From: an uncultured Planctomycetaceae bacterium
GTDB taxonomy: Bacteria > Planctomycetota > Phycisphaerae > SM23-33
NCBI GenBank assembly: GCA_964472875.1
Contig: CAYYMD010000001.1
Coordinates: forward strand, 11,505-75,504
Length of the DNA: 64,000 bases
Direction: 5' to 3'
Under the pieces are notes generated by a model, which was given only the letters and a program-made list of their open reading frames with translations, was not told the origin of the DNA and searched no databases. The position numbers and the translations under genes are program-made. Shown here in pieces: positions 47,903 to 64,000 of this stretch. Every line of letters starts with the position of its first letter. Within the stretch, counting starts at the first letter, position 1.

Positions 47903-48448
47903 TCAGGCGGCCTGAGATTCGCCTTCCTGTTGTTCCATCGCTTTTAAAGCACCGCCCAGCGACCGGCCCGGACCGAGCATTGCGCCGCCTATGTTCGCCC
48001 CGGCCGACAGTATGCTCGTTACAACCTTGGCAACCGCCTCTTCGCGGGTGGGATAGTTGCTCAGTTCCTTGATTTGCTCGTCGCCTATGTAATCGGCGCC
48101 TTCGAGCATGGCCGCCTTAACCGTAAGCGCCGGCGACTCCTTGCCTATATCCAGCAGTTCGCGAACCATGGCCACCATGTCCATCTGCTGGGGGTCTTTG
48201 GGGTATGCAACGGCCGACGGACCTTCCAAAAGCGATGCGGCTTTATCGAGGCCTATGTCCTTGAAGGCCTGCCTGGCAAGAGAATTCTTCACCACCGTCA
48301 TGGCAATATTCTTCTCCTGCAGGCGAGCCCGCACTGCAGTAGTGGCCTTACCATCCAGTCCGGTAAAGCCCACCACCGCCAGCGACTCCAGACCTTCAAA
48401 CCGCTTCGCGAATTCTTTACGCATCAGTTTCTTTACGGGTTTGCTCAT
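47903..48448 (-). CDS. rplJ: 50S ribosomal protein L10
   Basis: Length, position and helical C-terminal L12-binding region consistent with L10. Confidence 0.9.
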   Translation of the reverse strand: MSKPVKKLMRKEFAKRFEGLESLAVVGFTGLDGKATTAVRARLQEKNIAMTVVKNSLARQAFKDIGLDKAASLLEGPSAVAYPKDPQQMDMVAMVRELLDIGKESPALTVKAAMLEGADYIGDEQIKELSNYPTREEAVAKVVTSILSAGANIGGAMLGPGRSLGGALKAMEQQEGESQAA

Positions 48449-52562: not shown

Positions 52563-52634
<72 letters not shown>

Positions 52635-52760
52635 ATTACATGACTTACGACATAGTATGCTGCCGTGGTCATTATAAAGATACACTTCAACTGCCGCCGA
52701 GGACAAGATTAATAATAATATATATTATCAAAATCAAACGTCAAATAAAAATTTTCAGGA
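52635..52760 (-). promoter_or_regulatory. AT-rich promoter region for tRNA-Thr-tuf (exact TATAAT at 52676..52671 ~40 nt upstream of tRNA; TTGACG at 52744..52739 with AT-rich -10-like region)
   Basis: Motifs read directly on the minus strand; marks the head of the co-directional ribosomal superoperon. Confidence 0.35.
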
Positions 52761-52818
52761 TTTTTGGATAAATTTTAAAAGAATGTGATTGCGACAAATT
52801 CCCCAAACCGCCGTTGCT

Positions 52819-54036
52819 TTATTGCGCAACTACGTTTGAGAGTTTGAACACCGGCAGAAGCAGCGCTATGGCTATGCCACCGACTATAAGCCCCATTATG
52901 ATTATCATAGCAGGTTCTATAAGAGATGTGATGGCCTTGACCGACACAGACAGTTCCTCCTCGCAGAAGTCCGCCGCCTTCTCCAGCACTCCGGACAGTC
53001 GGCCGGTGCGCTCCCCCGCGTCTATCATTTGAGTCAAGGTCCGTGGAACCAGTTCATATTCGAAGAGCCGCTCCGAAAGCGTCGAGCCGGTCTTGACCTG
53101 TTCGGACAGGTCCGTCCACATCTGTGAATAATAATAGTTACCCGAAACCTCCGCGGTAATCTGCAGCCCTTCCAGGATTCCCACATCCGTAGAAACCATC
53201 GTGGCCAAAGTACGCATGGATCTGGCAAGAGAGGCCTTCCGGTACATAGGTCCTATTATCGGCATGTTAATTTTAATCTTGTCCAGCAGGATGCTTCCTT
53301 TTTGCGACCTGAAGTACATGTAAACGCCTACTATTATGGCAGCTACCGCCGGAATAAGCAGATACCAGTAATCCGTCATGGCGTGGCTGATGTATAGAAG
53401 GATTTGTGTCGGTGCAGGCAAAACGGCGCCTTTGCCGCTGTAAATTTTCTCGAAACGAGGCAGCACCAGCGTCAGCAGCGCAATGATGACTATGGTACAG
53501 AAACTCAACATACATATCGGATACGTCATGGCGCCTTTTATCTGTTTGCGGGTCTTTCTCTCCGACTGCATGTACTGGCTGGCCCGCTGAAGCATCTGCC
53601 CCATTGTTCCCGAGGCCTCGGAGGCCCGCACCAAAGCAACGAAAAGTTTCCCGAACACTTTGGGATGACTCTCCATCGCCGAAGATAGTGTCTGCCCGGC
53701 CTTAACCTGCTCGGACAGGTCGCCGACCACCTCCGTAAGCTCCGGCTTGTCCGACTGCTGGGCGATGGCGTCCAACGCCTCATCCAGCGGGACTCCCGTA
53801 TCAACCATAACCGCCAGTTGGGTGGAAAAGAATATGACCTGGTCGCGCTTTATCTTTTTTCTTCGGCCAGTGGTACCGGTGGTGTCCGATGCCTGTTCTT
53901 GATGCGGGCGAATTGAAACTACGGACTTGCCCTCTCGCCTGAGCATACCGGCGGCTTCGTCCTTGTCCCTCGCGGCCAGGACACCGGCGTCCATTCTTCC
54001 TCCTCCCATACGTGCGTGATAAGCAAATTTAGGCAT
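52819..54036 (-). CDS. type II secretion / type IV pilus platform protein (GspF/PilC family)
   Basis: 405 aa inner-membrane protein with two T2SS-F repeats; adjacent to GspE/PilB ATPase. Confidence 0.85.
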   Translation of the reverse strand: MPKFAYHARMGGGRMDAGVLAARDKDEAAGMLRREGKSVVSIRPHQEQASDTTGTTGRRKKIKRDQVIFFSTQLAVMVDTGVPLDEALDAIAQQSDKPELTEVVGDLSEQVKAGQTLSSAMESHPKVFGKLFVALVRASEASGTMGQMLQRASQYMQSERKTRKQIKGAMTYPICMLSFCTIVIIALLTLVLPRFEKIYSGKGAVLPAPTQILLYISHAMTDYWYLLIPAVAAIIVGVYMYFRSQKGSILLDKIKINMPIIGPMYRKASLARSMRTLATMVSTDVGILEGLQITAEVSGNYYYSQMWTDLSEQVKTGSTLSERLFEYELVPRTLTQMIDAGERTGRLSGVLEKAADFCEEELSVSVKAITSLIEPAMIIIMGLIVGGIAIALLLPVFKLSNVVAQ

Positions 54037-54085
54037 TTTCAGACATTCCGTGTTTGCACATAGCTTATTTAGGCGAGTCCTGCGG

Positions 54086-55882
54086 CTAAGCCGCCGTGGC
54101 CCTGAATACCTCCTCCACAGTGGTTATACCGGCCGCTACTTTAGACATGCCGTCCTGTCGGAGAGTTACCATACCGCGTTCTATCGCAGCGGCCCGGATT
54201 TCGTCCCGCGTAGCCCCGGCATTGATTTTTTCAGTTATCTCGTCGTCCGGAACAAGCAGTTCGTAAATTCCTATTCGTCCTCCGTAACCGGTGCTGCGGC
54301 ATTTCTGGCATCCTGCGCCCCTGTAAAATTTTTCCACTTGCCCCACTTCCCGTTCGACTGCGCGTCGTATGCCCGCCGAGGGTTCGTAGGGCTCCTTGCA
54401 ATTGGTGCAGATTTTTCTGACCAGCCGCTGGGCCAGAACCGCCTCCGTGGAAGCGGCCACGAGGTAGGGCTCCACACCTATATTAACCAGGCGAGTGACC
54501 GCACCGGGCGCGTCGTTGGTGTGCATTGTGCTGAAGACCAGGTGACCCGTAAGCGCCGCCTGCACTGCAATCCGGGCCGTCTCTTCATCGCGTATCTCGC
54601 CCATCATTATAATGTCCGGGTCCTGTCGAAGCAGCGACCGCAGCGCCGAAGCGAACGAGAAACCGATACGCTCGTTAACCTGGAACTGGTTAACGCCGGT
54701 GAGATTGTATTCGACCGGGTCCTCCACAGTGCATATGTTCACCTGCTCGTTGCACAATTCATTAAGGACGCTGTAAAGGGTGGTGCTCTTGCCGCTTCCG
54801 GTCGGGCCGGTTACCAGGACAATTCCGTTGGGCACAGTTATCACCTTCCGCCAGGTCTTGAGCGTCTCATAGGCGAAACCGAGTTTCTCAAGATTCACGA
54901 GAACCCGGCGGTTGTCGATTATCCTGATGACCACTTTTTCGCCGTGCTGGCCGGGCATGGTGCTTACGCGCAGGTCGATAGGCCGGCTGTTCATCAGCAC
55001 GTGTATGCCGCCGTCCTGCGGCAAACGCCGCTCGGAGATATCCAGGCCCGCCATAATCTTAATCCGGCTGACAATAGCGGGAAGCATTTTGTAGGGTGGC
55101 TTCAGTTTCTCGAATAAAATACCATCCACCCTGTATCGCACGCGCAAAGAATTTTCATCCGGTTCGATATGTATGTCGGAAGCCCCCTCCCTGACGGCGT
55201 TGAACAGCAGATAATTTACCAGTTTGACCACCGGCGAACCTTCCGCCGCCGCCTCCAGGTCTGTTATGTCCTCTATCTTGTCTTCGACTATGGATACCTC
55301 ATCCGGCATCTCATCTTCGAATATATCGTCTATGACAAATACATTTGCCGAGGGAAGGTGAGTCTCCAGGGTGGCCTTTATATCGTTGCCGGTAGCGCAT
55401 ACCACCAGCACTTCACATCCGGTCAGACGAGCCACTTCTTCCATAAGGAATACATTGGCTGGCTCGTTAACGGCCAGTGAAAGGCGGTTTCTGACCTTGA
55501 ACAGCGGAAGTACAGTATGTTTGTCGAGAAATTCCCGGGGCAGCACATCGATAATTCTCGGGTCGGCCAGTCTTGGAGATATCCTGGCAAACGGAACGCC
55601 ATACCCAGCCGCCAGCGCCTGCATGATTTGCTCTTCGGTACATATCTCGAGTTTCTGAAGAACTTCGCCGAGCAGCAGATTACTTCCTGAATTTCGCTGA
55701 TAGTCCAGTGCCTCTGCGAGCTGCTCCTCGTTCAAGGTACCCTGCCTTATGAGCAACTGGCCCAGAGGCAGGGCGGACTTGGAGCCGGGACGCACTGGCC
55801 TGTTCGCTTCCTGAGAAGAACCCTCAGAAGCCACATGGACCTGCTCCGGGTCGGCGTTATTGTCTTCTGCTTTTGAAATCAT
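54086..55882 (-). CDS. type II secretion / type IV pilus assembly ATPase (GspE/PilB family) with N-terminal MshEN-like domain
   Basis: Walker A GPTGSGKST, Asp/His boxes, Zn tetracysteine CTNC...CQKC; N-terminal T2SSE_N with tandem LGxxLIxxGxLxxxxLxxALxxQ-like motifs. Confidence 0.9.
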   Translation of the reverse strand: MISKAEDNNADPEQVHVASEGSSQEANRPVRPGSKSALPLGQLLIRQGTLNEEQLAEALDYQRNSGSNLLLGEVLQKLEICTEEQIMQALAAGYGVPFARISPRLADPRIIDVLPREFLDKHTVLPLFKVRNRLSLAVNEPANVFLMEEVARLTGCEVLVVCATGNDIKATLETHLPSANVFVIDDIFEDEMPDEVSIVEDKIEDITDLEAAAEGSPVVKLVNYLLFNAVREGASDIHIEPDENSLRVRYRVDGILFEKLKPPYKMLPAIVSRIKIMAGLDISERRLPQDGGIHVLMNSRPIDLRVSTMPGQHGEKVVIRIIDNRRVLVNLEKLGFAYETLKTWRKVITVPNGIVLVTGPTGSGKSTTLYSVLNELCNEQVNICTVEDPVEYNLTGVNQFQVNERIGFSFASALRSLLRQDPDIIMMGEIRDEETARIAVQAALTGHLVFSTMHTNDAPGAVTRLVNIGVEPYLVAASTEAVLAQRLVRKICTNCKEPYEPSAGIRRAVEREVGQVEKFYRGAGCQKCRSTGYGGRIGIYELLVPDDEITEKINAGATRDEIRAAAIERGMVTLRQDGMSKVAAGITTVEEVFRATAA

Positions 55883-55950
55883 ATCGTGGTCAACCTATTA
55901 AAAAGTTTTCTCCAAGCCGGCGTCTGACCAACCGAAACTGCCTGTTTGCC

Positions 55951-56334
55951 TCACGTCGGCAAGCGCTCTTTAATCGCCTCCTCGCTGTTTTTATAGGTCT
56001 CAAAGGCCGAATCCAGTCGCGTGATTTCAAGTATCTTGCTTATGTTCTCATCACATCCGCACAACCTGAGGCGTCCCATGCGTTCGGCCAGTGTGTCCTG
56101 CAGGTCCAGAAAATATTCCAGCGCCGCACTATCAATGGCAGGAACGTTATGGAGATCCAGAACTATGTCGATTATCCACGGCTCTGCTCCGGCATTTTCC
56201 GGCGAAGATTGCCCCCTATCCTCCTCCAGTTGATGTTCGACCGTTCGGATAAGCTGTTCCAGCGAATCCTCGGTAAGCTCTCCTTTAATGGAAAGTATGG
56301 CCGCATGACCATATGTCTCTGTAGTTATGTTCAT
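55951..56334 (-). CDS. STAS-domain protein (anti-sigma-factor antagonist-like)
   Basis: SpoIIAA-like fold; HNVPAIDSAALEYFLDL motif; 4-nt overlap with upstream HD-GYP gene stop. Confidence 0.75.
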   Translation of the reverse strand: MNITTETYGHAAILSIKGELTEDSLEQLIRTVEHQLEEDRGQSSPENAGAEPWIIDIVLDLHNVPAIDSAALEYFLDLQDTLAERMGRLRLCGCDENISKILEITRLDSAFETYKNSEEAIKERLPT

Positions 56335-58022
56335 ATTTCACTCTCCGAGGCAGCACCAGCTATTCCCTCCAGTTCACACGGAGCCCCTGAGCCGATTTTA
56401 AAGGAACTTCTTCGGCCGATATTGCTGACGAATTCGCTCAAATCTATTGAAAGCAGCCTTTCGGCCAGGGCCGGGTCGAACTGTGTGCCCGCATGGCTTT
56501 TTATTTCTTCTATGGCCTCTTCCAGCGGAAGTGCTTTGCGATAGGTTCTGTCGGTAATCATCGCATCGAGACAATCCGCCAGACCTACAATCCTGCCCTC
56601 TATGGGTATCTGTTCTCCGGCCAGTTGCCGGGGGTATCCTTTGCCGTCAGGACGTTCGTGGTGTGTCAAAATTCCCCTGGCCACGCCCCGCCATTGGCGA
56701 AAACCACCAATGATTTTGGCGCCGGTGACGGGATGCTGTTTAATCTTTTCGAATTCGGCTCTGCTCAGTCGGTTCGTCTTTCGCAGCGTCTCTTCGGGCA
56801 CTCCAATCTTTCCTATGTCGTGCAGCAGCCCGGCGAGATAAACCTGCTTTACCTTCTCAGCATCCAGGCCGGATTCTTCGGCCAGCCGTTTGGATATAAG
56901 CGCCACTCGCTGTGAATGGCCGCTGGTGTACGGATCCTTGGCGTCAATCGAGGCAGTCAGCGCGTGCAGTACGCCTATAAGCAAATCCTGCAGGTCGGCA
57001 TAAAGCATGCTGTTGGCCAGGAACACGCCGGTCTGATTGGCAATGGAACTGAGCAACTGGAGGTCGGCGCTGTTAAAGTCGCCGGATAGTTTTTCGGCAC
57101 CTATTAACAACCCGACCTGTCTGTCCTCAGCAACAATAGGCACGGCCACCAAACCGCGCCTGGGTTCTTCGACGCCCTGGGCCGTTGGTATAGGAAACTG
57201 ATTATCCAGTAAAACGCGACGGCCTGAATCCATTCTCCGGTTTATCTCCTCCGCCAATCGCAGTATTTTTTCATCGGAGACCTTTTCCTGACCTGCCCTG
57301 ACCACCATGTTTTCTTCCCGTCGCTGTCGCTGGGGGTGAACAACAGCCCACGCGGCCGATATGTTCATTACCTCCAGCAGTTCGTTACATGCGTTCTGAA
57401 GGAAATCCCCTACCTGCTGGGTCACCTTTATGGAACCGCTTATTCTATATACCAGCGATAGTTCTTCATAAGTTCTGGCCAGGTTGGTGCTCATCGTGGC
57501 CAGTTCATCATCGGCGATTTGTTCGTTTAGCAGGTGCTCCAGCAGCCAACCCAATATACTGATGATATGTTCGGCCTGGGATGCGCTGTGTCGGCAGTAT
57601 TTTTCGGCGGCATTTCTGGTCGCCTGGCGGTCAAGATGGAGATGATCGCACATTCGCGAAAAATGTTCTTCTTCAAGAATTTCAAGGGGCGGGAAACACG
57701 CCACCACCGCGCCGGCTATACGTCTTCGCCGACGGACAGGCACGCCCAGCTGAAAACAGCCCGTCCGGCATTGATTTATGATGTTATTTCGCTGGGCCAT
57801 CGCCTTTTCAGCGACATCCTGAGCGCTTTGCCTGCAGGGCGCTTCGGCGCCGAGCATGAAGCGGCAGAACCTGCCGGAGGGACAGAAACCTTCTGCGCAT
57901 CTGCCGGTTTCGTCCCATGTCGAAAGATGCAGGCCCAACCGCTCCATGCGGGCGCGTAGCTCCTCGGCTACCGCTTTGGGAAGCGGTAGAATCCTCTGTG
58001 AGGCCGTTTCCAGTCTACTCAT
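56331..58022 (-). CDS. multi-domain HD-GYP c-di-GMP phosphodiesterase (Cys-rich N-terminal region + GAF + HD-GYP)
   Basis: HD-GYP signature LHDIGKIGVPEE...HHERPDGKGYP; preceding GAF-like domain; N-terminal CxxxCPSGRFCRF...CRQ...CRTGC. ORF is open to 58223 but ATG at ~58022 (MSRLETAS) overlaps the receiver stop as ATGA. Confidence 0.8.
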   Translation of the reverse strand: MSRLETASQRILPLPKAVAEELRARMERLGLHLSTWDETGRCAEGFCPSGRFCRFMLGAEAPCRQSAQDVAEKAMAQRNNIINQCRTGCFQLGVPVRRRRRIAGAVVACFPPLEILEEEHFSRMCDHLHLDRQATRNAAEKYCRHSASQAEHIISILGWLLEHLLNEQIADDELATMSTNLARTYEELSLVYRISGSIKVTQQVGDFLQNACNELLEVMNISAAWAVVHPQRQRREENMVVRAGQEKVSDEKILRLAEEINRRMDSGRRVLLDNQFPIPTAQGVEEPRRGLVAVPIVAEDRQVGLLIGAEKLSGDFNSADLQLLSSIANQTGVFLANSMLYADLQDLLIGVLHALTASIDAKDPYTSGHSQRVALISKRLAEESGLDAEKVKQVYLAGLLHDIGKIGVPEETLRKTNRLSRAEFEKIKQHPVTGAKIIGGFRQWRGVARGILTHHERPDGKGYPRQLAGEQIPIEGRIVGLADCLDAMITDRTYRKALPLEEAIEEIKSHAGTQFDPALAERLLSIDLSEFVSNIGRRSSFKIGSGAPCELEGIAGAASESEI

Positions 58023-58429
58023 GCTCCCTCCGCAATTTTTTTGACACCGGCTGTAATAAGTTCGTCGACCTTCCCAAGTACCTGGCGTGGCGAGAACGGT
58101 TTGGCCAGGACCCCCACAATGCCGGCGGCTGTCATTTCCGCCGGCTCGAGGTCGAAACCGCGTGCGGTAAGCATAATAGCCGGTATCCCCTCCGTGCGTT
58201 GTTCGGCTCGCAGACGCTGGCAAAGTTCCAAACCGGTAATCACCGGCATCTGGTAATCGGTGATAATAAGGTTCGGCCGCTGTTCCCGGGCCAGTTCAAG
58301 CGCTTCCTCACCATCTACGGCCGTGAGCACATCGTAACCGGCATTTTTTAGCTTTAGCGAAAGAACGTTGAGAATGTGGGATTCATCATCGGCGATTAAT
58401 ACTTTTCCGCGGTTATGCGACATATTCAT
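58019..58429 (-). CDS. stand-alone response-regulator receiver domain protein (CheY-like)
   Basis: DDESHIL...LIITDYQMP (phospho-Asp), MLTAR, LAKPF; no output domain. Confidence 0.85.
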   Translation of the reverse strand: MNMSHNRGKVLIADDESHILNVLSLKLKNAGYDVLTAVDGEEALELAREQRPNLIITDYQMPVITGLELCQRLRAEQRTEGIPAIMLTARGFDLEPAEMTAAGIVGVLAKPFSPRQVLGKVDELITAGVKKIAEGA

Positions 58430-58520
58430 CTCCCTTTAAACCTCCCTGCCGAGTCAGTCCCTCCTGCTGCGGCAGGCATAAGCTACTCCTTTTATTTATC
58501 GTTACAATACGGCGGCGTCT

Positions 58521-59963
58521 TTACTTGGTAAGTGGAAGTTCGAATGCAAACGTGCTTCCTTCGCCTTCTTTGCTGGCCACATCCAGTTTGCCGTTGTGAA
58601 CCGTCTCGATAATACGCTTTACGAGGGCCAGGCCCAGACCGGTGCCCTTGGCAACCTTTGTGCCTGCCCCGACGCGATAGAACTTGTCGAACACATGCGG
58701 CAGGTCGTCGGCGGAGATACCCATGCCGGTGTCGCGGACCTCGCAACGCACAATACTTGTACGTTCGTCCACCTCGACGGTGACAGCAACCTTCCCGCCA
58801 TTCGGGGTATACTTGACCGCGTTGGACACCAGATTCATCACCGCCTGGTAGATTAAATCATGATCGGCCTCGACCTGGTAATAAACCGGCGCCAGGGAGT
58901 GCTCTATGGTGATATCCTTGGCTCTGGCCTGAACTCCGGCCACATCCAGCACCTGCTTTACGATACCGGCAAGACTCATAGGTTTTCTGGCGACCTTTAT
59001 AACGCCCGATTCTATGCGAGAGATATTCAGTATGTTTTCTATGAGGCGGTGGAGACGGTTCGTCTCGGTGGAAATAATCTCGTAAAATTCCTGCTGCGTT
59101 TGCTTGTCCTGCGCCTCGTCGTCCAGCAGCATTTCTATATAGGCCTTGATGGAGGCCAGCGGCGTTTTCAGTTCGTGCGAGACATGCGATACGAAGTCGG
59201 TTTTCATATCAGCTATTTCTTTCTCGTGCGTGATGTCGTGAAGCACCGCAACCACACCGGAAATCTCATCGTCGGGCGTGACGACGCATCCCAGCGTGGC
59301 GTTGAAGGTCCGCTGTTTACCATCAACCGTTATCGTGTGTTCGACCTGCTTGCGGTCGACATGTTCGCCATGACTGCGGACATCGCAGATAAGATCAACC
59401 AGTCTACTGTCAGACAAAACCTCGGAGATATTGCGACGGTGATCGCGGGAAAAATCGAATCCCAGCAGTTTTTCGGCGGCCTCGTTGGCCAGCAGCAACT
59501 CGTCGAAACGGTTGGTCACAATCACTGCGTCGGAAATAGAGAATATAATGGCTTCGGTGTTTCTCTTTTCCCCAGAAATTATTCTGCGTTGCAGCTGCAG
59601 GTCGCGGTTTTCGGCCTCCAGTCGTTCTATCCTCGTTTTCACCGAATCGAGAAACTCGTTAAGCGACCTGGTAATCTGGGCGGGCTGACCGAAAGGATAA
59701 GTCCCCGTCAGATGCACTCGCCCGCTTCTGGTCATTTCGCGCAGTTGCGAGGATATCTGCGAAATTGTCCTGTAGAAATTCTGCCTGAACACAAACAGCG
59801 TCAGAAGCGCTACCCCCAGCACGAGCCCCAGCAGTGCGTGATTTATCGAATCATCGAGGCCCCAGTTGCTCTGCACCACCCTCATGCAGGCATAACTTGC
59901 CACGCCCGCTCCTATCGATAGCAGAATCTTTCCCACCAGCGGAGTGCTTTTAGTAAGCGTCAT
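58521..59963 (-). CDS. membrane-anchored PAS-domain sensor histidine kinase
   Basis: Two N-terminal TM helices; PAS segment; H-box FVSHVSHELKTPL; N/G-boxes NLVSNAVKYT, DTGMGI, GTGLGLALV. Confidence 0.9.
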   Translation of the reverse strand: MTLTKSTPLVGKILLSIGAGVASYACMRVVQSNWGLDDSINHALLGLVLGVALLTLFVFRQNFYRTISQISSQLREMTRSGRVHLTGTYPFGQPAQITRSLNEFLDSVKTRIERLEAENRDLQLQRRIISGEKRNTEAIIFSISDAVIVTNRFDELLLANEAAEKLLGFDFSRDHRRNISEVLSDSRLVDLICDVRSHGEHVDRKQVEHTITVDGKQRTFNATLGCVVTPDDEISGVVAVLHDITHEKEIADMKTDFVSHVSHELKTPLASIKAYIEMLLDDEAQDKQTQQEFYEIISTETNRLHRLIENILNISRIESGVIKVARKPMSLAGIVKQVLDVAGVQARAKDITIEHSLAPVYYQVEADHDLIYQAVMNLVSNAVKYTPNGGKVAVTVEVDERTSIVRCEVRDTGMGISADDLPHVFDKFYRVGAGTKVAKGTGLGLALVKRIIETVHNGKLDVASKEGEGSTFAFELPLTK

Positions 59964-60010
59964 TACCTTGGTTGCCTCCTGTGGGCCTCTTTTCCGTCGA
60001 CGGCTGAGAT

Positions 60011-61246
60011 TTATCGGCCGCCCAACGGCGCCATAGAAACCTCCTGCGACGAAGCTGCGGCATCGTCGTCCTGACGCAGTTTATCGAGCAACGCGCGGGC
60101 AAGTTTGCTGTCGGGGTCGATTTCGAGTGCCTTGGCGTAACACCTGGCCGCCTCAGCCCGCTCATCCCTGGCCGTATTCACCATACCAAGCAGACACAAA
60201 AGGGGCGCATCGGGTTCCCCAAGAGCCAAGGTTCTGTTGAGCACCTCGTCGGCCTGCGAGACACGGTCGGTCTTCAAGAGTGCATAGCCGAGCAACATAG
60301 CGGCATTGCTGTTTGCAGGTTTTTTTGACAGCGCCTTCCTTGTAGAGACAACAACACCTTCCAAATCGCCGCAGGCCAGTTCAGCCCTCGCCAGTTTCTC
60401 GTAGAGTTTGGCGCTGTCCCCTCTCTTTTTGACCGCTTTTTGGTAAGCGTTGCGGGCCTTGATGGGTTCGCCTGTGGCCATGTGACAATCGCCGAGCATC
60501 GCGAACACCCATGCCGGAGAATCCGCACTGGCGGCCAGTTCGTCAAGATGGCGCCTCGCTTCCTCATAACGGCCGGAAAGATATTCCGCCTTGGCCAGTG
60601 CCCGCAGATAACCCACATTTTCAGGGTCGAGATCGCAGGCCTGACTGTAGTATTCGGCTGCGGAATCGTATTCATCGCGCATCATTGCAATGCGGCCGCC
60701 AAGCTCGTACATGGAGGGGTCGTCATCGGCCTGCGATATATGGCTCTCCACCTGCAACTGCGCTTCACGGATGCGTCCCATCGCCACCAGAACCTCCGTA
60801 ACTGCATGCACGGCGTCCATATTGCGGTTATCCAATGCATAGGCCTGGCGGTAACTGTGAATTGCCTGTTGAAGGTTATCCGCTTTTTCCTGTGCAACGC
60901 CGAGGAGATACCATACCCGCGCAGAATTCGGCCGGTTGCTTTTTACCTGTTCAAACTGTTCTATCGCCTCTTGATAGCGGCCCTGTTCGATGCAGACTTT
61001 ACCCAGCAACATCCTTGCGTCTACAAAGTTCTCATCCAGTGCCAACGCACGAGCGGCATTGCTGTGGGCCTGGTCCAGTTCGCCGACCTTCAGATGCTCC
61101 TTGGCCACCTTGAAAACCACTTCTGCCCGGGCTTTGTGCCACTTTTCGTATACTTCCTTCTTATTGTCCTTTTTGAACAAAGCGACGTTTTGGCATCCTG
61201 ATGTCACTGCAAGGATTACTGCCGCCGCTATTATATATTTTTTCAT
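60011..61246 (-). CDS. TPR-repeat lipoprotein (PilF/PilW-like candidate secretin pilotin/assembly factor)
   Basis: Signal + lipobox AVTSGC; ~9 TPR repeats across 411 aa; sits between the secretin and sensor kinase genes. Confidence 0.6.
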   Translation of the reverse strand: MKKYIIAAAVILAVTSGCQNVALFKKDNKKEVYEKWHKARAEVVFKVAKEHLKVGELDQAHSNAARALALDENFVDARMLLGKVCIEQGRYQEAIEQFEQVKSNRPNSARVWYLLGVAQEKADNLQQAIHSYRQAYALDNRNMDAVHAVTEVLVAMGRIREAQLQVESHISQADDDPSMYELGGRIAMMRDEYDSAAEYYSQACDLDPENVGYLRALAKAEYLSGRYEEARRHLDELAASADSPAWVFAMLGDCHMATGEPIKARNAYQKAVKKRGDSAKLYEKLARAELACGDLEGVVVSTRKALSKKPANSNAAMLLGYALLKTDRVSQADEVLNRTLALGEPDAPLLCLLGMVNTARDERAEAARCYAKALEIDPDSKLARALLDKLRQDDDAAASSQEVSMAPLGGR

Positions 61247-61340
61247 GGTTTTGCTCCCGGCGACTCTAAGCCGCCAAATTCAGTATCTTTCTTAGAACTC
61301 CCTAATTAACGCGCAAGTCTAAAATTTTTTACGTGTGAGA

Positions 61341-63407
61341 CTATTCTTGCTTGCCGGACTGGCTCATCTGGCCGGTATTTTTCGCCTCATCCTGTCCGGC
61401 ATTGTTGCTCTTGCCGGCCGGTGTGTCTGTTCGGCCTTGCGGCCGCGGCTTCATATCCGGACGTTTCGGTCCTGGAAGAGGATCAACATACCTCTTCTGG
61501 AAACCGAAAGTATCCCTGACTTTCTTATCTTTAATCATGCCCGCATCACGTGGACGATTCGGAGGAACTACTCGAGGATAAGGTTTGCCGAGATCGTGCA
61601 TCATAATGTGTTTGATTAGATATTTGATGCTGGAGTGGCGAAACTCATCCGCCCAGTACGCCTGTTCTGTAAGACGTTCTTTCAGGCGGACCGCCTGTAT
61701 CATCCTCGGCTCCAGTGACAGGGCGTTATCCACATACCACAGGGCCTCCTGCGGCCTTCCGGCCCGCATCGCCTTTCTTGCCTTGCGCATGTAGCCCTGA
61801 GCGATGCGCTCGCGGGCCCACCACTGGACACCCTTGCGGCTGCCGATGTAATAACGGTAAACGTTGCCTTTCATCTGTTCTCCGACCGCTTCGGCGGCGT
61901 CCTGCTTGATTATGTGCGGGGTGATAAGGACGATTATTTCTCTTCGGGTAGTTTCATCCTTTGTACCGCGGAAGGCGGCGCCAAGGTATGGCACATCACC
62001 AAGCATGGGTATCTGGTTGCGACTCGTTGTTGTCTTTTCGCGGAACAGCCCGCCTATTACTATGGTCCTTCCGTCACGAACCATAACGTTGGAGGTCACT
62101 TCCGTGGTCTCCTCACTGGGCAGGGCCAGTTCACCCTGAACCTGCACGCTGCCTATTGAATCTTCGGGGTGGAGCTCCATCCGGACGTAGCCGTCCTTGC
62201 CCACGTAAGGCCTGACCACCAGCCGCGTGCCCGTTTCCAAGAATTCGACGGTCTGCGTGGCTGTGGTTTCGGTTATAGTCGTGGTTATGTAGCCGTCGCG
62301 GTTGCCGACCATCACCTCGCCCCGCTGCTTGTTGACCACGAGTATTTTTGGATTGGCCAGAACAGTAACGTCCGTTACGGACTCCAGCGCTCGAACGAAA
62401 AATGACACGTCATTGCTGAGAAAGCCAATGCTGACACCGCCCTCGGGTACTATGCCCGAGAAATCCGTTCCAACCTGACCGGCCCGGACTCCGCGTAGAG
62501 CGTCGCTTTCGAGGCCGCCGGTGGTCATGTCGCCGATCCCGCCGTTGCTCGTGGCCGAGCCGATGCTCTGGAAGTCGATGCCGGCCAGCGTATTCATGTC
62601 TATGCCGAGATAGTTTTTCTCGGTGAGCTTGGCGCTAAGAATGGTGGCCTCTATGAGCACCTGTTCTGGTTTGACGTCGAGGCGCTGCACGATTTTGCGG
62701 ACTTTCTCGATATTCTCCTTGTAATCACGGACAACCAGGACGTCATCGGTCGCGTAGGAGTTGCCGCCGGCCTCAGTGTCCGAGGTCTCGATGCCCATCT
62801 CAGCTTCCGGAGTAAGCGCTATGGCGCCCTGGTCCGAGAGAACCGGCTCTATAAGCGTCTTGGCGTCCTTGGCGGTAACGTATGAAAGGTGGAAAACCTC
62901 CACGGAGACCTTTCTTTGGGCCTTGCGGATCTCCTGGAGTTGTTCGGGCGTATATACGTAAATGAAATTTCCCTTCTCTACGTAAACGTATCCGGTGGAT
63001 TTAAGGACCGCCTCCAGGGCCTCATCGAACGTCACGCCGTAAAGGTCAGCCGTAACCTCGCCGGCAACCTCTTTGGTGGCGATTATATTCTTGCGTCCCT
63101 GCGTGCTGAGCATCTGTAATACGCCGCGAAGGTCCGCTCCCTGGACGTGTATTTCGAAAGTGCCCGGCCGGGTCATCTTTACAGGGCCGCTTTGTTCACC
63201 GGCCGGCTTGGCGGCGCCGGCGCTGTCATCCCCCTCGGCGGGGCCTGTGGTAGTCGTTTGGCCACCATCCGAAAATAGCCGTCCCAGAAAGGTGTCTTCT
63301 CCCGGGGCGACACCCGCAGATATAAATACAACCAGGACCGCTGCCACCGCAATCCGGGCACCAATGCCCTTGAATCCATTCATTTTTAAACTCCTCTTAT
63401 TTTTCAT
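61341..63407 (-). CDS. secretin (GspD/PilQ family) with ~190-aa C-terminal extension
   Basis: N0/secretin_N domains (ATKEVAGEVTADLYGVTFDEALEAVL), secretin core (VLIEATILSAKLTEK...GDVPYLGAAFRGT..EIIVLITPHII), then extra C-terminal region with TPR-like segment. Confidence 0.9.
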   Translation of the reverse strand: MKNKRSLKMNGFKGIGARIAVAAVLVVFISAGVAPGEDTFLGRLFSDGGQTTTTGPAEGDDSAGAAKPAGEQSGPVKMTRPGTFEIHVQGADLRGVLQMLSTQGRKNIIATKEVAGEVTADLYGVTFDEALEAVLKSTGYVYVEKGNFIYVYTPEQLQEIRKAQRKVSVEVFHLSYVTAKDAKTLIEPVLSDQGAIALTPEAEMGIETSDTEAGGNSYATDDVLVVRDYKENIEKVRKIVQRLDVKPEQVLIEATILSAKLTEKNYLGIDMNTLAGIDFQSIGSATSNGGIGDMTTGGLESDALRGVRAGQVGTDFSGIVPEGGVSIGFLSNDVSFFVRALESVTDVTVLANPKILVVNKQRGEVMVGNRDGYITTTITETTATQTVEFLETGTRLVVRPYVGKDGYVRMELHPEDSIGSVQVQGELALPSEETTEVTSNVMVRDGRTIVIGGLFREKTTTSRNQIPMLGDVPYLGAAFRGTKDETTRREIIVLITPHIIKQDAAEAVGEQMKGNVYRYYIGSRKGVQWWARERIAQGYMRKARKAMRAGRPQEALWYVDNALSLEPRMIQAVRLKERLTEQAYWADEFRHSSIKYLIKHIMMHDLGKPYPRVVPPNRPRDAGMIKDKKVRDTFGFQKRYVDPLPGPKRPDMKPRPQGRTDTPAGKSNNAGQDEAKNTGQMSQSGKQE

Positions 63408-63478
63408 CCGGCCGCTTCCTGAGCTGCCGGTACCGGCGCGCCCTTCATAAGCTGCCGGAATTACCTCATACGTATTCG

Positions 63479-63985
63479 TTATCGGCTTTTCATGGTAAGG
63501 ATTATACTAACGCCTTCTTTTTTTACCTCGCATGATCGGGCTGTTATGTCGACTACCTTGAAACCGCTAATCCATTCGCCTTCGCGCAGCACCTTCCCGT
63601 TGATAATGGCGATGGGAACATCCGACACCACCGTGCTCTGCAGTGAAAGCGCCTTGGACTGGGCAAGCACCATCTGCCTGTGGGCCTCGATGCGCTGCTG
63701 CTTCTGATTGCTGCTTTCCTTCTGCTGAGCATCGGTTTTTGTATCTTTCTTTACGCGAGGTGGAAAGTATTGTGGATCCGGTTTGAATATGTCCCTGTCA
63801 ATCCTGGGACGCTCCTTTTGAGCGGAATCTTTTTCACGTGAAAGAGCCCTTGCCATTTGCACCGGGTCATTTGGCAAACTTCTAATTGAGGAATCGGACG
63901 ATTGCGCCGGCGCGGCGGCAACCGTGCGTGGGCGCGCCGGCGAGCCGCCCTTTAATACCGTTTTCAAAACCACTACAAGCGCCAC
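63479..63985 (-). CDS. PilP/GspC-like pilus/secretion assembly protein (secretin-interacting C-terminal domain)
   Basis: C-terminal beta-domain VVSDVPIAIINGKVLREGEWISGFKVVDITARSCEVKKEGVSIIL resembles the PilP/GspC HR domain; N-terminal part K/Q-rich; function inferred. Confidence 0.45.
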   Translation of the reverse strand: MALVVVLKTVLKGGSPARPRTVAAAPAQSSDSSIRSLPNDPVQMARALSREKDSAQKERPRIDRDIFKPDPQYFPPRVKKDTKTDAQQKESSNQKQQRIEAHRQMVLAQSKALSLQSTVVSDVPIAIINGKVLREGEWISGFKVVDITARSCEVKKEGVSIILTMKSR

Positions 63986-64000
63986 GATAACGAGAATACC

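Follow-up and report, generated by a model that had tools for sequence, protein, structure and literature searches.

Type IV pili are usually regulated by factors encoded elsewhere in the genome, among them FimX, PilZ proteins and the Pil-Chp and PilSR systems acting on transcription, and a two-component system embedded in the pil cluster (pilS-pilR) is known in Myxococcus and Geobacter. In another envelope machine, the STAS protein MlaB binds MlaF as an accessory of that ATPase. Cyclic di-GMP (c-di-GMP) controls pilus ATPases through MshE and its MshEN domain, including extension of the MSHA pilus (PMC5013675, PMC7096442, PMC4624772). Phosphorylation of the RpfG receiver relieves the inhibition of the HD-GYP domain (PMC3749722), and STAS proteins bind c-di-GMP enzymes in the HsbA-HsbD, BgrV-BgrR and STAS-like SiaC-SiaD pairs, of which HsbD also affects type IV pili (PMC5085249, PMC8457831). 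The locus described here lies in a 64,000-nt stretch (the window) of contig CAYYMD010000001.1 from an uncultured Planctomycetaceae bacterium, where nine genes at 52819-63985 encode part of a pilus-type machine and place four signalling genes between its pore and motor genes.

The locus probably encodes a type IVa-pilus-class machine with a conserved four-gene regulatory cassette, consisting of a PAS histidine kinase, a stand-alone receiver, a PocR-GAF-HD-GYP protein and a STAS protein, whose most likely role is post-translational control of the assembly motor. Every part of it is a known domain, and there are precedents for c-di-GMP control of pilus ATPases, for HD-GYP effects on type IV pili and for two-component systems in pil clusters (PMC5013675, PMC7096442, PMC4624772, PMC4686200, PMC3749722). 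Searches of the accessible literature, subscription-only papers excluded, gave no description of a four-gene cassette between pilotin and motor genes, of its reuse on a paralogous system or of a phylum-wide STAS-PilB gene pair. In an entire phylum, it seems, a sensor kinase, a receiver, a c-di-GMP phosphodiesterase and a STAS protein are hard-wired into the locus between pore and motor genes. The arrangement could serve as a compact model, with defined genes, of how c-di-GMP signals locally at a nanomachine. It provides access to the surface appendages of Planctomycetota, which have hardly been studied and are considered important for attachment to particles of polysaccharide. It also suggests a role for STAS proteins that is undescribed in the searchable literature, as partners of a PilB-type ATPase.

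Gene order and its conservation

The nine minus-strand open reading frames (ORFs) all run in the same direction, with intergenic distances in gene order of 71, 94, 47, 91, -4, -4, 68 and 49 nt. Both 4-nt overlaps, receiver/HD-GYP and HD-GYP/STAS, read ATGA in the sequence, and the latter is also present in L002, one of the comparison loci, which carry L numbers throughout. The overlaps indicate that the receiver, HD-GYP and STAS genes are probably translationally coupled. No terminator-like site was found on the coding strand of any intergenic gap, and a promoter and terminator scan of the gaps gave nothing exceeding shuffled expectation, a result that weakly favours a single transcription unit. 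An earlier note on this DNA had listed nine co-directional minus-strand genes with gaps below 100 nt and two 4-nt overlaps, exactly as the sequence reads. Eight of its nine domain labels are recovered by Pfam models above their curated cut-offs, the basis of all domain calls here except that of the PilP-like gene; its PilP/GspC-like label finds no family match at threshold.

Homologues of the window HD-GYP protein and of PilM carry the source names Phycisphaerae bacterium and Planctomycetota bacterium. Two collection scans, which are samples and not a census, gave 80 retained loci, with the closest genomes outside these. Genome loci were centred on the HD-GYP gene; the PilM alignment was too diverse to seed the metagenome scan and the secretin was used in its place. 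Among the matches listed, 21 genome loci have an HD-GYP protein that aligns over most of its length, and 19 of these repeat the window order over whatever part of it their contigs cover. These loci are titled Phycisphaerae, Tepidisphaeraceae, Sedimentisphaerales, Planctomycetota, Pirellulales and Planctomycetaceae metagenome-assembled genomes (MAGs). Thirty metagenome loci were informative, with at least 6 kb downstream of the secretin. Among the matches listed, 20 of them read TPR-kinase-receiver-HD-GYP-STAS-ATPase(-platform) and six have a secretin-TPR pair with different surroundings, as in L138. The same order is found in L002, L163 and L165. Proteins of the order-sharing loci are 25-75% identical to those of the window, and because the order recurs in dozens of loci at this divergence the layout is far beyond chance. 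The cassette appears to be the normal state of this cluster type. The earlier remark that signalling genes are not usually inserted between a secretin and its ATPase is true of model organisms, whereas Planctomycetota have this layout as a rule; the embedding of all four genes in relatives, which the same note had raised, is usual in both scans but not invariable.

The part of the cluster beyond position 64000 was recovered from two Logan contigs of one sequencing run that carry the DNA of this organism. L001 is identical to window 52587-64000, and L164 overlaps the start of L001 by 25 nt. The gene at 63479-63985 is cut at the window edge; its frame is open to 64000 and its start lies ~100 nt further (L164/L001). 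L164 encodes proteins of 394, 105 and 180 aa followed by PilM, PilN, PilO and the start of the PilP-like protein, and the 180-aa protein occupies the slot of the GspH-like pilin of L163 and L165. Pfam matches to PilM_2, PilN and PilO are present in L164 and in L002, L163 and L165. The closest relative (L163 and L165) has an HD-GYP protein 77% identical to that of the window and the same tuf-to-rpoB neighbourhood. Its cluster starts with hemC, a 555-nt leader and a 149-aa pilin (MNRRNKAFTLVEILIVVIILGILAAIVIPQF...), continues with genes of 160, 182, 217 and 409 aa, a 106-aa gene and a 179-aa GspH-like pilin, and proceeds through PilM, PilN, PilO, a 201-aa PilP-like protein, the secretin and the TPR protein to the kinase, receiver, PocR-GAF-HD-GYP, STAS, ATPase and platform genes, followed by a tRNA and tuf. 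The complete cluster measures ~18 kb and ~20 genes with a pilin-like block of six or seven genes, and the window region probably corresponds to the 3' two-thirds of one operon-like cluster of that size. In other relatives the upstream block encodes three to five proteins with an N-terminal methylation motif. The best NCBIfam names of the relatives' pilin-like proteins, all sub-threshold, are GspG, GspI/PilV, GspK and GspH.

A regular-expression scan of the whole 64-kb window gave no prepilin motif, in agreement with the earlier statement that no pilin or pseudopilin gene lies inside it, and the pilM/N/O and pilin genes expected past 64000 are found in L164 and in the closest relative. The fibre, described at that time as unknown, can now be given a kind: a GspG-like major pilin with minor pilins, in an orthologous group that is a type IVa pilus. 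No prepilin peptidase (PilD) is present among the Pfam-called genes of the complete clusters L002, L163 and L165.

Class of the machine

The type IVa pilus reading rests on gene content and solved relatives. Scores of the machine proteins of the window fall below the cut-off of every NCBIfam equivalog or subfamily model tested: 224.1 against 284.35 for PilQ and 216 against 351.35 for GspD (secretin), 617.6 against 675.65 for PilB and 616.7 against 630.25 for GspE (ATPase), 343.3 against 424 for GspF (platform) and 79.9 bits against 154 for PilW (TPR lipoprotein). The GspG-like pilin of the relatives scores 60 against a cut-off of 88.85, and PilM of L163 scores 133.4 against 133 with TIGR01175. 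The position of GspC/GspL/GspM is taken by PilM/N/O. Among solved structures, the ATPase is matched best by full-length PilB from Geobacter and Myxococcus. In five orthologous clusters a PilT/PilU gene lies between the ATPase and platform genes (Table 1), with TIGR01420 scores of 393-420 bits against 319; the 64-kb window contains no PilT, and the ATPase-platform gap is ~100 nt in the closest relative. Because of PilM/N/O, the full-length PilB matches and the PilT genes of the five orthologous clusters, the machine is read as a type IVa pilus. There is good support for its anatomy, its conservation and its pilus class.

A type II secretion system was rejected as the class on the strength of PilM/N/O and the in-cluster PilT of relatives. 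It is correspondingly improbable that the machine secretes folded proteins such as glycoside hydrolases through a short pseudopilus, with no surface pilus and with the cassette gating secretion. The set of pilins does have a pseudopilin-like look, and the best NCBIfam names lean that way, being GspG, GspH, GspI/XpsI and faintly GspK for the pilins and GspF for the platform, and the ATPase scores for GspE and PilB are nearly equal; but all of those scores are below cut-off. Type II secretion ATPases that bind c-di-GMP are known (PMC4624772), and glycoside hydrolase genes follow the truncated cluster of L108. Against this stand PilM/PilN/PilO in place of GspL/GspM/GspC, PilT/PilU inside five orthologous clusters and full-length PilB as the best solved match of the ATPase.

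Among described type IV filament systems, the window resembles the MSHA system of Vibrio cholerae in that its ATPase has an N-terminal MshEN region (PF05157, and NF053729 above cut-off). From the alignment proteins through secretin, TPR protein and ATPase to the platform, the gene order resembles mshI-J-K-L-M-N-E-G. Membership in the MSHA group was rejected on the MshL score (132 bits against a cut-off of 250) and gene content. MshM is absent, the second MshEN motif is degenerate, the pilins lie upstream and not downstream, four signalling genes precede the ATPase gene and PilT occurs in orthologous clusters. The type IVa systems of Myxococcus and Geobacter share PilM/N/O, a PilQ-like secretin, a TPR lipoprotein and a PilB-like ATPase with the window, and five relatives have the order pilB-pilT-pilC. 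In contrast to the classical systems, the PilB and PilQ models score below cut-off here, the regulator has no DNA-binding or sigma-54 output, the cluster contains HD-GYP and STAS genes, and the major pilin is GspG-like. Sub-threshold likeness was also seen to the Akkermansia Amuc_1098-1101 system (secretin to Amuc_1098, PilM to Amuc_1101) and to the Verru_Chthon cassette (pilin-like genes to proteins C and D), with all scores far below cut-offs. Neither the Amuc_1098-1101 nor the Verru_Chthon clusters are known to contain a signalling cassette.

The signalling cassette and its probable link to c-di-GMP

The kinase has NCBIfam matches of the PnpS/WalK/PhoR-like type, and its HATPase_c_2 match is sub-threshold (22.5 against 27.4). 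The receiver retains the acidic pocket (DD), the phospho-acceptor Asp in IITDYQMP and the Lys in LAKPF. Pfam detects no output or DNA-binding domain in it, and its target is therefore expected at the protein level. The HD dyad and the HHExxDGxGYP motif of the HD-GYP protein, metal ligands included, are invariant in 19 orthologues, and the best solved relative is PDB 4mcw (140 bits). The invariant metal-binding and GYP residues argue for predicted catalysis. For this gene a 630-aa ORF beginning with TTG (56331-58223) was rejected as overlong, the real start being the ATG at 58022.

The N-terminal segment of the HD-GYP protein, labelled Cys-rich in the earlier note, does contain conserved cysteines and is a PocR sensory domain (residues 1-170), in which C53, C63, C89, C109 and C125 are invariant or nearly so. 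An invariant linker, NLxxTYEELSLLY, connects PocR to GAF and has the form TYEELSLVY in the window. These residues suggest metal or redox sensing by the PocR cysteines and a possible protein-docking helix in the linker.

The cassette has a likeness to Xanthomonas RpfC/RpfG, where a histidine kinase, receiver and HD-GYP domain are linked to type IV pilus function. The receiver and the HD-GYP enzyme are separate but coupled genes here and not one RpfG-type polypeptide, the HD-GYP N-terminus holds its own PocR and GAF sensors, the genes lie inside the pilus operon, and the window-type cluster has no PilZ or GGDEF partners.

The direction and wiring of the signal flow are what we infer for this cassette, as is the gating by c-di-GMP turnover and phosphorelay that had been predicted earlier; the domains behind that prediction are confirmed, and in relatives the signalling genes keep their place beside the machine genes. 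The full gene order is a GspG-like major pilin, five to six minor or pilin-like genes, PilM-N-O, the PilP-like protein, secretin, TPR lipoprotein, the four cassette genes, the PilB-type ATPase and the PilC-type platform. The kinase would phosphorylate the receiver, which would modulate the HD-GYP enzyme in the manner of a split RpfG. The HD-GYP enzyme may integrate signals from PocR, with its cysteines, and from GAF, and lower local c-di-GMP. The ATPase would sense the change via its MshEN-like N-terminal domain, via STAS as a bound accessory subunit or adaptor, or both, and low c-di-GMP would disfavour pilus extension.

Several features connect this cluster family to c-di-GMP. The window ATPase passes the NCBIfam MshE-related c-di-GMP motif model NF053729 (48.1 against a cut-off of 38). 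Read against the published tandem MshEN motif (PMC5013675), its motif I (PLGQLLIRQGTLNEEQLAEALDYQ) is near-canonical and conserved in all 36 orthologues. A paralogous cluster in a Phycisphaerae MAG (L068) encodes a PAS kinase, receiver, HD-GYP, GAF-GGDEF and STAS, followed by ATPase, platform, PilM, PilN, two unassigned ORFs and a pilin; this cluster type is also found in L053, L063, L029 and the second cluster of L130. ATPases of the paralogue type carry two perfect MshEN motifs in tandem, separated by the canonical 5 residues, as in L053 (RLGQLLVDEGLVTADDLRRALDAQ-NKDNK-RLGEQLIELGILSPRAMLSALAKQ). In the same phylum, the paralogous cassette with a predicted maker and breaker of c-di-GMP thus sits on a bona fide MshEN-type motor. 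Two orthologous clusters (L097, L106) have c-di-GMP-I riboswitches (RF01051) scoring 53 and 52.1 bits against a gathering score of 35, located ~470-480 nt upstream of the first, GspG-like pilin gene. The riboswitches, the GGDEF gene and the perfect MshEN motifs of relatives strengthen the probable link to c-di-GMP. The 555-nt leader of the closest relative (L165) shows no homology to the leaders of L097 and L106. A PAS-GAF-receiver gene lies directly upstream of the riboswitch and pilin block in L097, and its product may be an additional regulator.

Several observations weigh against c-di-GMP control of the motor by a dedicated cassette. L013 and L022 have receiver and HD-GYP genes only, with the machine not nearby. 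Among the matches listed, two of the 30 metagenome loci (L127, L158) read TPR-STAS-ATPase-platform without kinase, receiver and HD-GYP, and two others (L098, L108) break off after the kinase, with receiver, HD-GYP, STAS and the motor genes necessarily elsewhere or lost. L098 and L108 come from one metagenome and have GH31 and apiosidase-like glycoside hydrolase genes after the kinase. These six loci favour the view that the signalling genes are passengers, namely a two-component system, an HD-GYP enzyme and an anti-sigma antagonist that control global c-di-GMP or a sigma factor and have no more in common with the pilus genes than a transcription unit. That view is very unlikely given that the TPR-to-ATPase position is kept across 25-75% identity in dozens of loci, the ATGA overlaps point to translational coupling, the cassette is re-used beside a second, paralogous PilB-type ATPase, and the cluster has no sigma or anti-sigma gene and no DNA-binding output.

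The other counterpoints concern the biochemistry. The cGAMP-specific phosphodiesterase V-cGAP3 (5z7c) matches the HD-GYP domain with 138 bits, nearly as well as the c-di-GMP enzymes. Window-type motif II is degenerate: it follows a spacer of 7 and not 5 residues and has Leu for Arg and Gly or Ala for the terminal Gln, and in the window protein (LLGEVLQKLEICTEEQIMQALAAG) the turn Gly is missing as well. Deviations of such size can abolish binding in Thermus PilF GSPII-A (PMC12002112), so the window ATPase is no more than a candidate for direct c-di-GMP binding. The riboswitch is present in just two of ~15 relatives searched. Searches of the window, L163, L165, L002 and ten other relatives gave no hit, and for the window and the closest relative with its 555-nt pilin leader this held even at E<=1. 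Genes for a diguanylate cyclase, a PilZ protein, a Ser kinase and a PP2C phosphatase are all missing from the window-type cluster. The Ser of STAS, kept in most orthologues, is Gly in L010, L016 and L023, so a phospho-switch cannot be universal.

The cassette could belong to the machine and still work by other means, with HD-GYP and STAS acting through protein contacts as a trigger enzyme or adaptor, as in RpfG-GGDEF-PilZ, or with a substrate such as 3'3'-cGAMP. The degenerate motif II and the near-top rank of V-cGAP3 fit this alternative, the invariant PocR-GAF linker is a candidate docking surface, RpfG controls pilus motors via complexes in which neither catalysis nor c-di-GMP binding by the partner is needed (PMC3749722), and STAS-like SiaC binds the coiled stalk of its partner enzyme (PMC8457831). 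We nevertheless consider it unlikely: the metal-binding and GYP residues are all invariant, which favours catalysis, the ATPase passes the curated c-di-GMP motif model, the riboswitches of relatives are c-di-GMP-I, and the paralogous cassette combines a GGDEF gene with perfect MshEN motifs. Post-translational control of the motor through c-di-GMP is the preferred explanation of the cassette.

STAS protein, outer-membrane components and flanking genes

The STAS protein scores 53.2 with TIGR00377, marginally below the cut-off of 53.45. L127 and L158 lack kinase, receiver and HD-GYP but keep STAS directly 5' of the ATPase gene, and a STAS ORF above the Pfam threshold immediately precedes the gene of a PilB-like ATPase in loci titled Schlesneria, Pirellula, Pirellulales, Planctomycetales, Phycisphaerae and Planctomycetota. 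STAS genes are under-detected by tblastn, and several that had seemed missing were found by a Pfam scan of the ORF upstream of the ATPase. STAS is the cassette part most tightly tied to the ATPase. The window STAS has a 13-residue insertion (DRGQSSPENAGAE, residues 38-50) that is absent in 35 of 35 aligned orthologues. L127 has a third STAS and ATPase pair on the opposite strand, with a shorter ATPase ORF that gives no match to the MshEN motif and a STAS that is seen by tblastn only (34% identity).

A partner-switch-type STAS protein had been proposed for this locus and is not established. No Ser kinase (RsbW/SpoIIAB-type), PP2C phosphatase or sigma/anti-sigma target is present in the clusters of the window, L002, L163 and L165, and together with the Gly of the three orthologues this leaves a classical partner switch unsupported. 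The HsbA-HsbD, BgrV-BgrR and SiaC-SiaD systems are similar in that a STAS protein with a conserved Ser stands beside a c-di-GMP enzyme, and in the paralogous cluster the GAF-GGDEF gene comes right before STAS. They differ in that no HsbR/SiaB-type kinase or PP2C is present here, the partner is a phosphodiesterase, the Ser is Gly in some orthologues, and STAS remains beside the ATPase even in clusters that lack the enzyme. This persistence favours a putative accessory subunit of the ATPase over a protein that binds the c-di-GMP enzyme. As with MlaB-MlaF, a small STAS gene adjoins the ATPase gene of an envelope machine, and an MlaB-like role would account for STAS accompanying the ATPase in all variants of the cluster. 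The MlaB model scores 21 bits against a cut-off of 90, and the ATPase is a PilB hexamer here and an ABC ATPase there.

A bolder and distinctly more tentative proposal is that STAS is a direct MlaB-like subunit of PilB-family ATPases that works without the classical partner-switch kinases. It would couple the motor to a split RpfG-like module (kinase, receiver and PocR-GAF-HD-GYP, joined by a GGDEF cyclase in the paralogues) that sets c-di-GMP at the pilus base, and the module would be machine-docked and phylum-wide. If this is correct, the type IV filament superfamily would gain a new principle of motor control, and the trait would belong to the phylum as a whole.

The label PilP-like is positional and is given from place and architecture only. 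The gene always lies between PilO and the secretin in the loci examined. No family model is matched at threshold, there is no GspC match, and a profile search of PDB sequences returned nothing; sub-threshold T2SSB and CdsD_C matches were seen in nine of ten orthologues. An exact sequence look-up of the window secretin found no match on record. Following its secretin domain is a C-terminal extension of ~185 aa with a segment conserved in seven of seven aligned orthologues (WW..ER.A......A......G....AL......AL.L.P....A.RLKER). The extension could be a docking site for the adjacent TPR lipoprotein, whose gene follows the secretin gene in nearly all relatives among the matches listed.

Table 1 Positions of cluster genes, sequence sites and related features. 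Positions without a locus number refer to the window.
Feature	Position	Strand	Details
PilP-like bitopic protein	63479..64000	-	N-terminal membrane helix, small C-terminal beta domain; 5' end outside window
Secretin (STN/N0, Secretin_N, secretin domain)	61341..63407	-	Pfam Secretin 139 bits; ~185-aa C-terminal extension
Secretin C-terminal extension	61341-61904	-	
TPR lipoprotein, pilotin-like by position	60011..61246	-	Pfam TPR families; lipobox AVTSGC 61193-61210
PAS histidine kinase, membrane-anchored	58521..59963	-	PAS + HisKA + HATPase_c; H-box SHELKTP 59160-59180
Stand-alone receiver, 136 aa	58019..58429	-	Response_reg 89.8 bits only
PocR-GAF-HD-GYP phosphodiesterase (predicted)	56331..58022	-	PocR 41.9, GAF_2 43.5, HD_5 138 bits
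PocR domain	57500-58022	-	
PocR-GAF linker	57447-57473	-	
HD dyad	56808-56828		LLHDIGK
GYP motif	56631-56663		HHERPDGKGYP
Single-domain STAS protein	55951..56334	-	STAS 57 bits; Ser in AIDSAAL 56119-56139
STAS insertion	56183-56221	-	13 residues
PilB/GspE/MshE-type assembly ATPase	54086..55882	-	T2SSE 452, MshEN 56.5 bits
MshEN motif I	55697-55768		
MshEN motif II	55604-55675		
Walker A	54782-54808		
Zinc site	54299-54409		CxxC...CxxC
PilC/GspF inner-membrane platform	52819..54036	-	T2SSF 192 bits, two stretches; last cluster gene
Ribosomal protein L7/L12	47228-47764	-	178 aa
PilT/PilU genes	L012:7215-8537; L015:3985-5238; L084:11198-12253; L106:18630-19706; L127:15182-16297		Between ATPase and platform
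c-di-GMP-I riboswitch (RF01051)	L097:1908-1990	+	53 bits
c-di-GMP-I riboswitch (RF01051)	L106:3252-3351	+	52.1 bits
PAS-GAF-receiver gene	L097:94-1758	+	Upstream of riboswitch and pilin block
Paralogous cluster	L068:7247-19488	+	Phycisphaerae MAG
Third STAS and ATPase pair	L127:17974-19400	-	
Glycoside hydrolase genes after kinase	L108:16238-20178		
L7/L12 of closest relative	L163:20217-20786		189 aa

The platform gene is followed at its 3' side by tRNA-Thr, tuf, tRNA-Trp, secE, nusG, rplKAJL, rpoBC and rpsLG. Because tRNA-Thr, tuf and the ribosomal and rpo genes come next, the cluster ends at 52819. The string GGEEF, seen at 48296 on the minus strand, falls within the ribosomal protein region in a frame that is non-coding, and was dismissed as chance. 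Ribosomal protein L7/L12 of the window has a Lys/Glu-rich N-terminal extension of ~50 residues.

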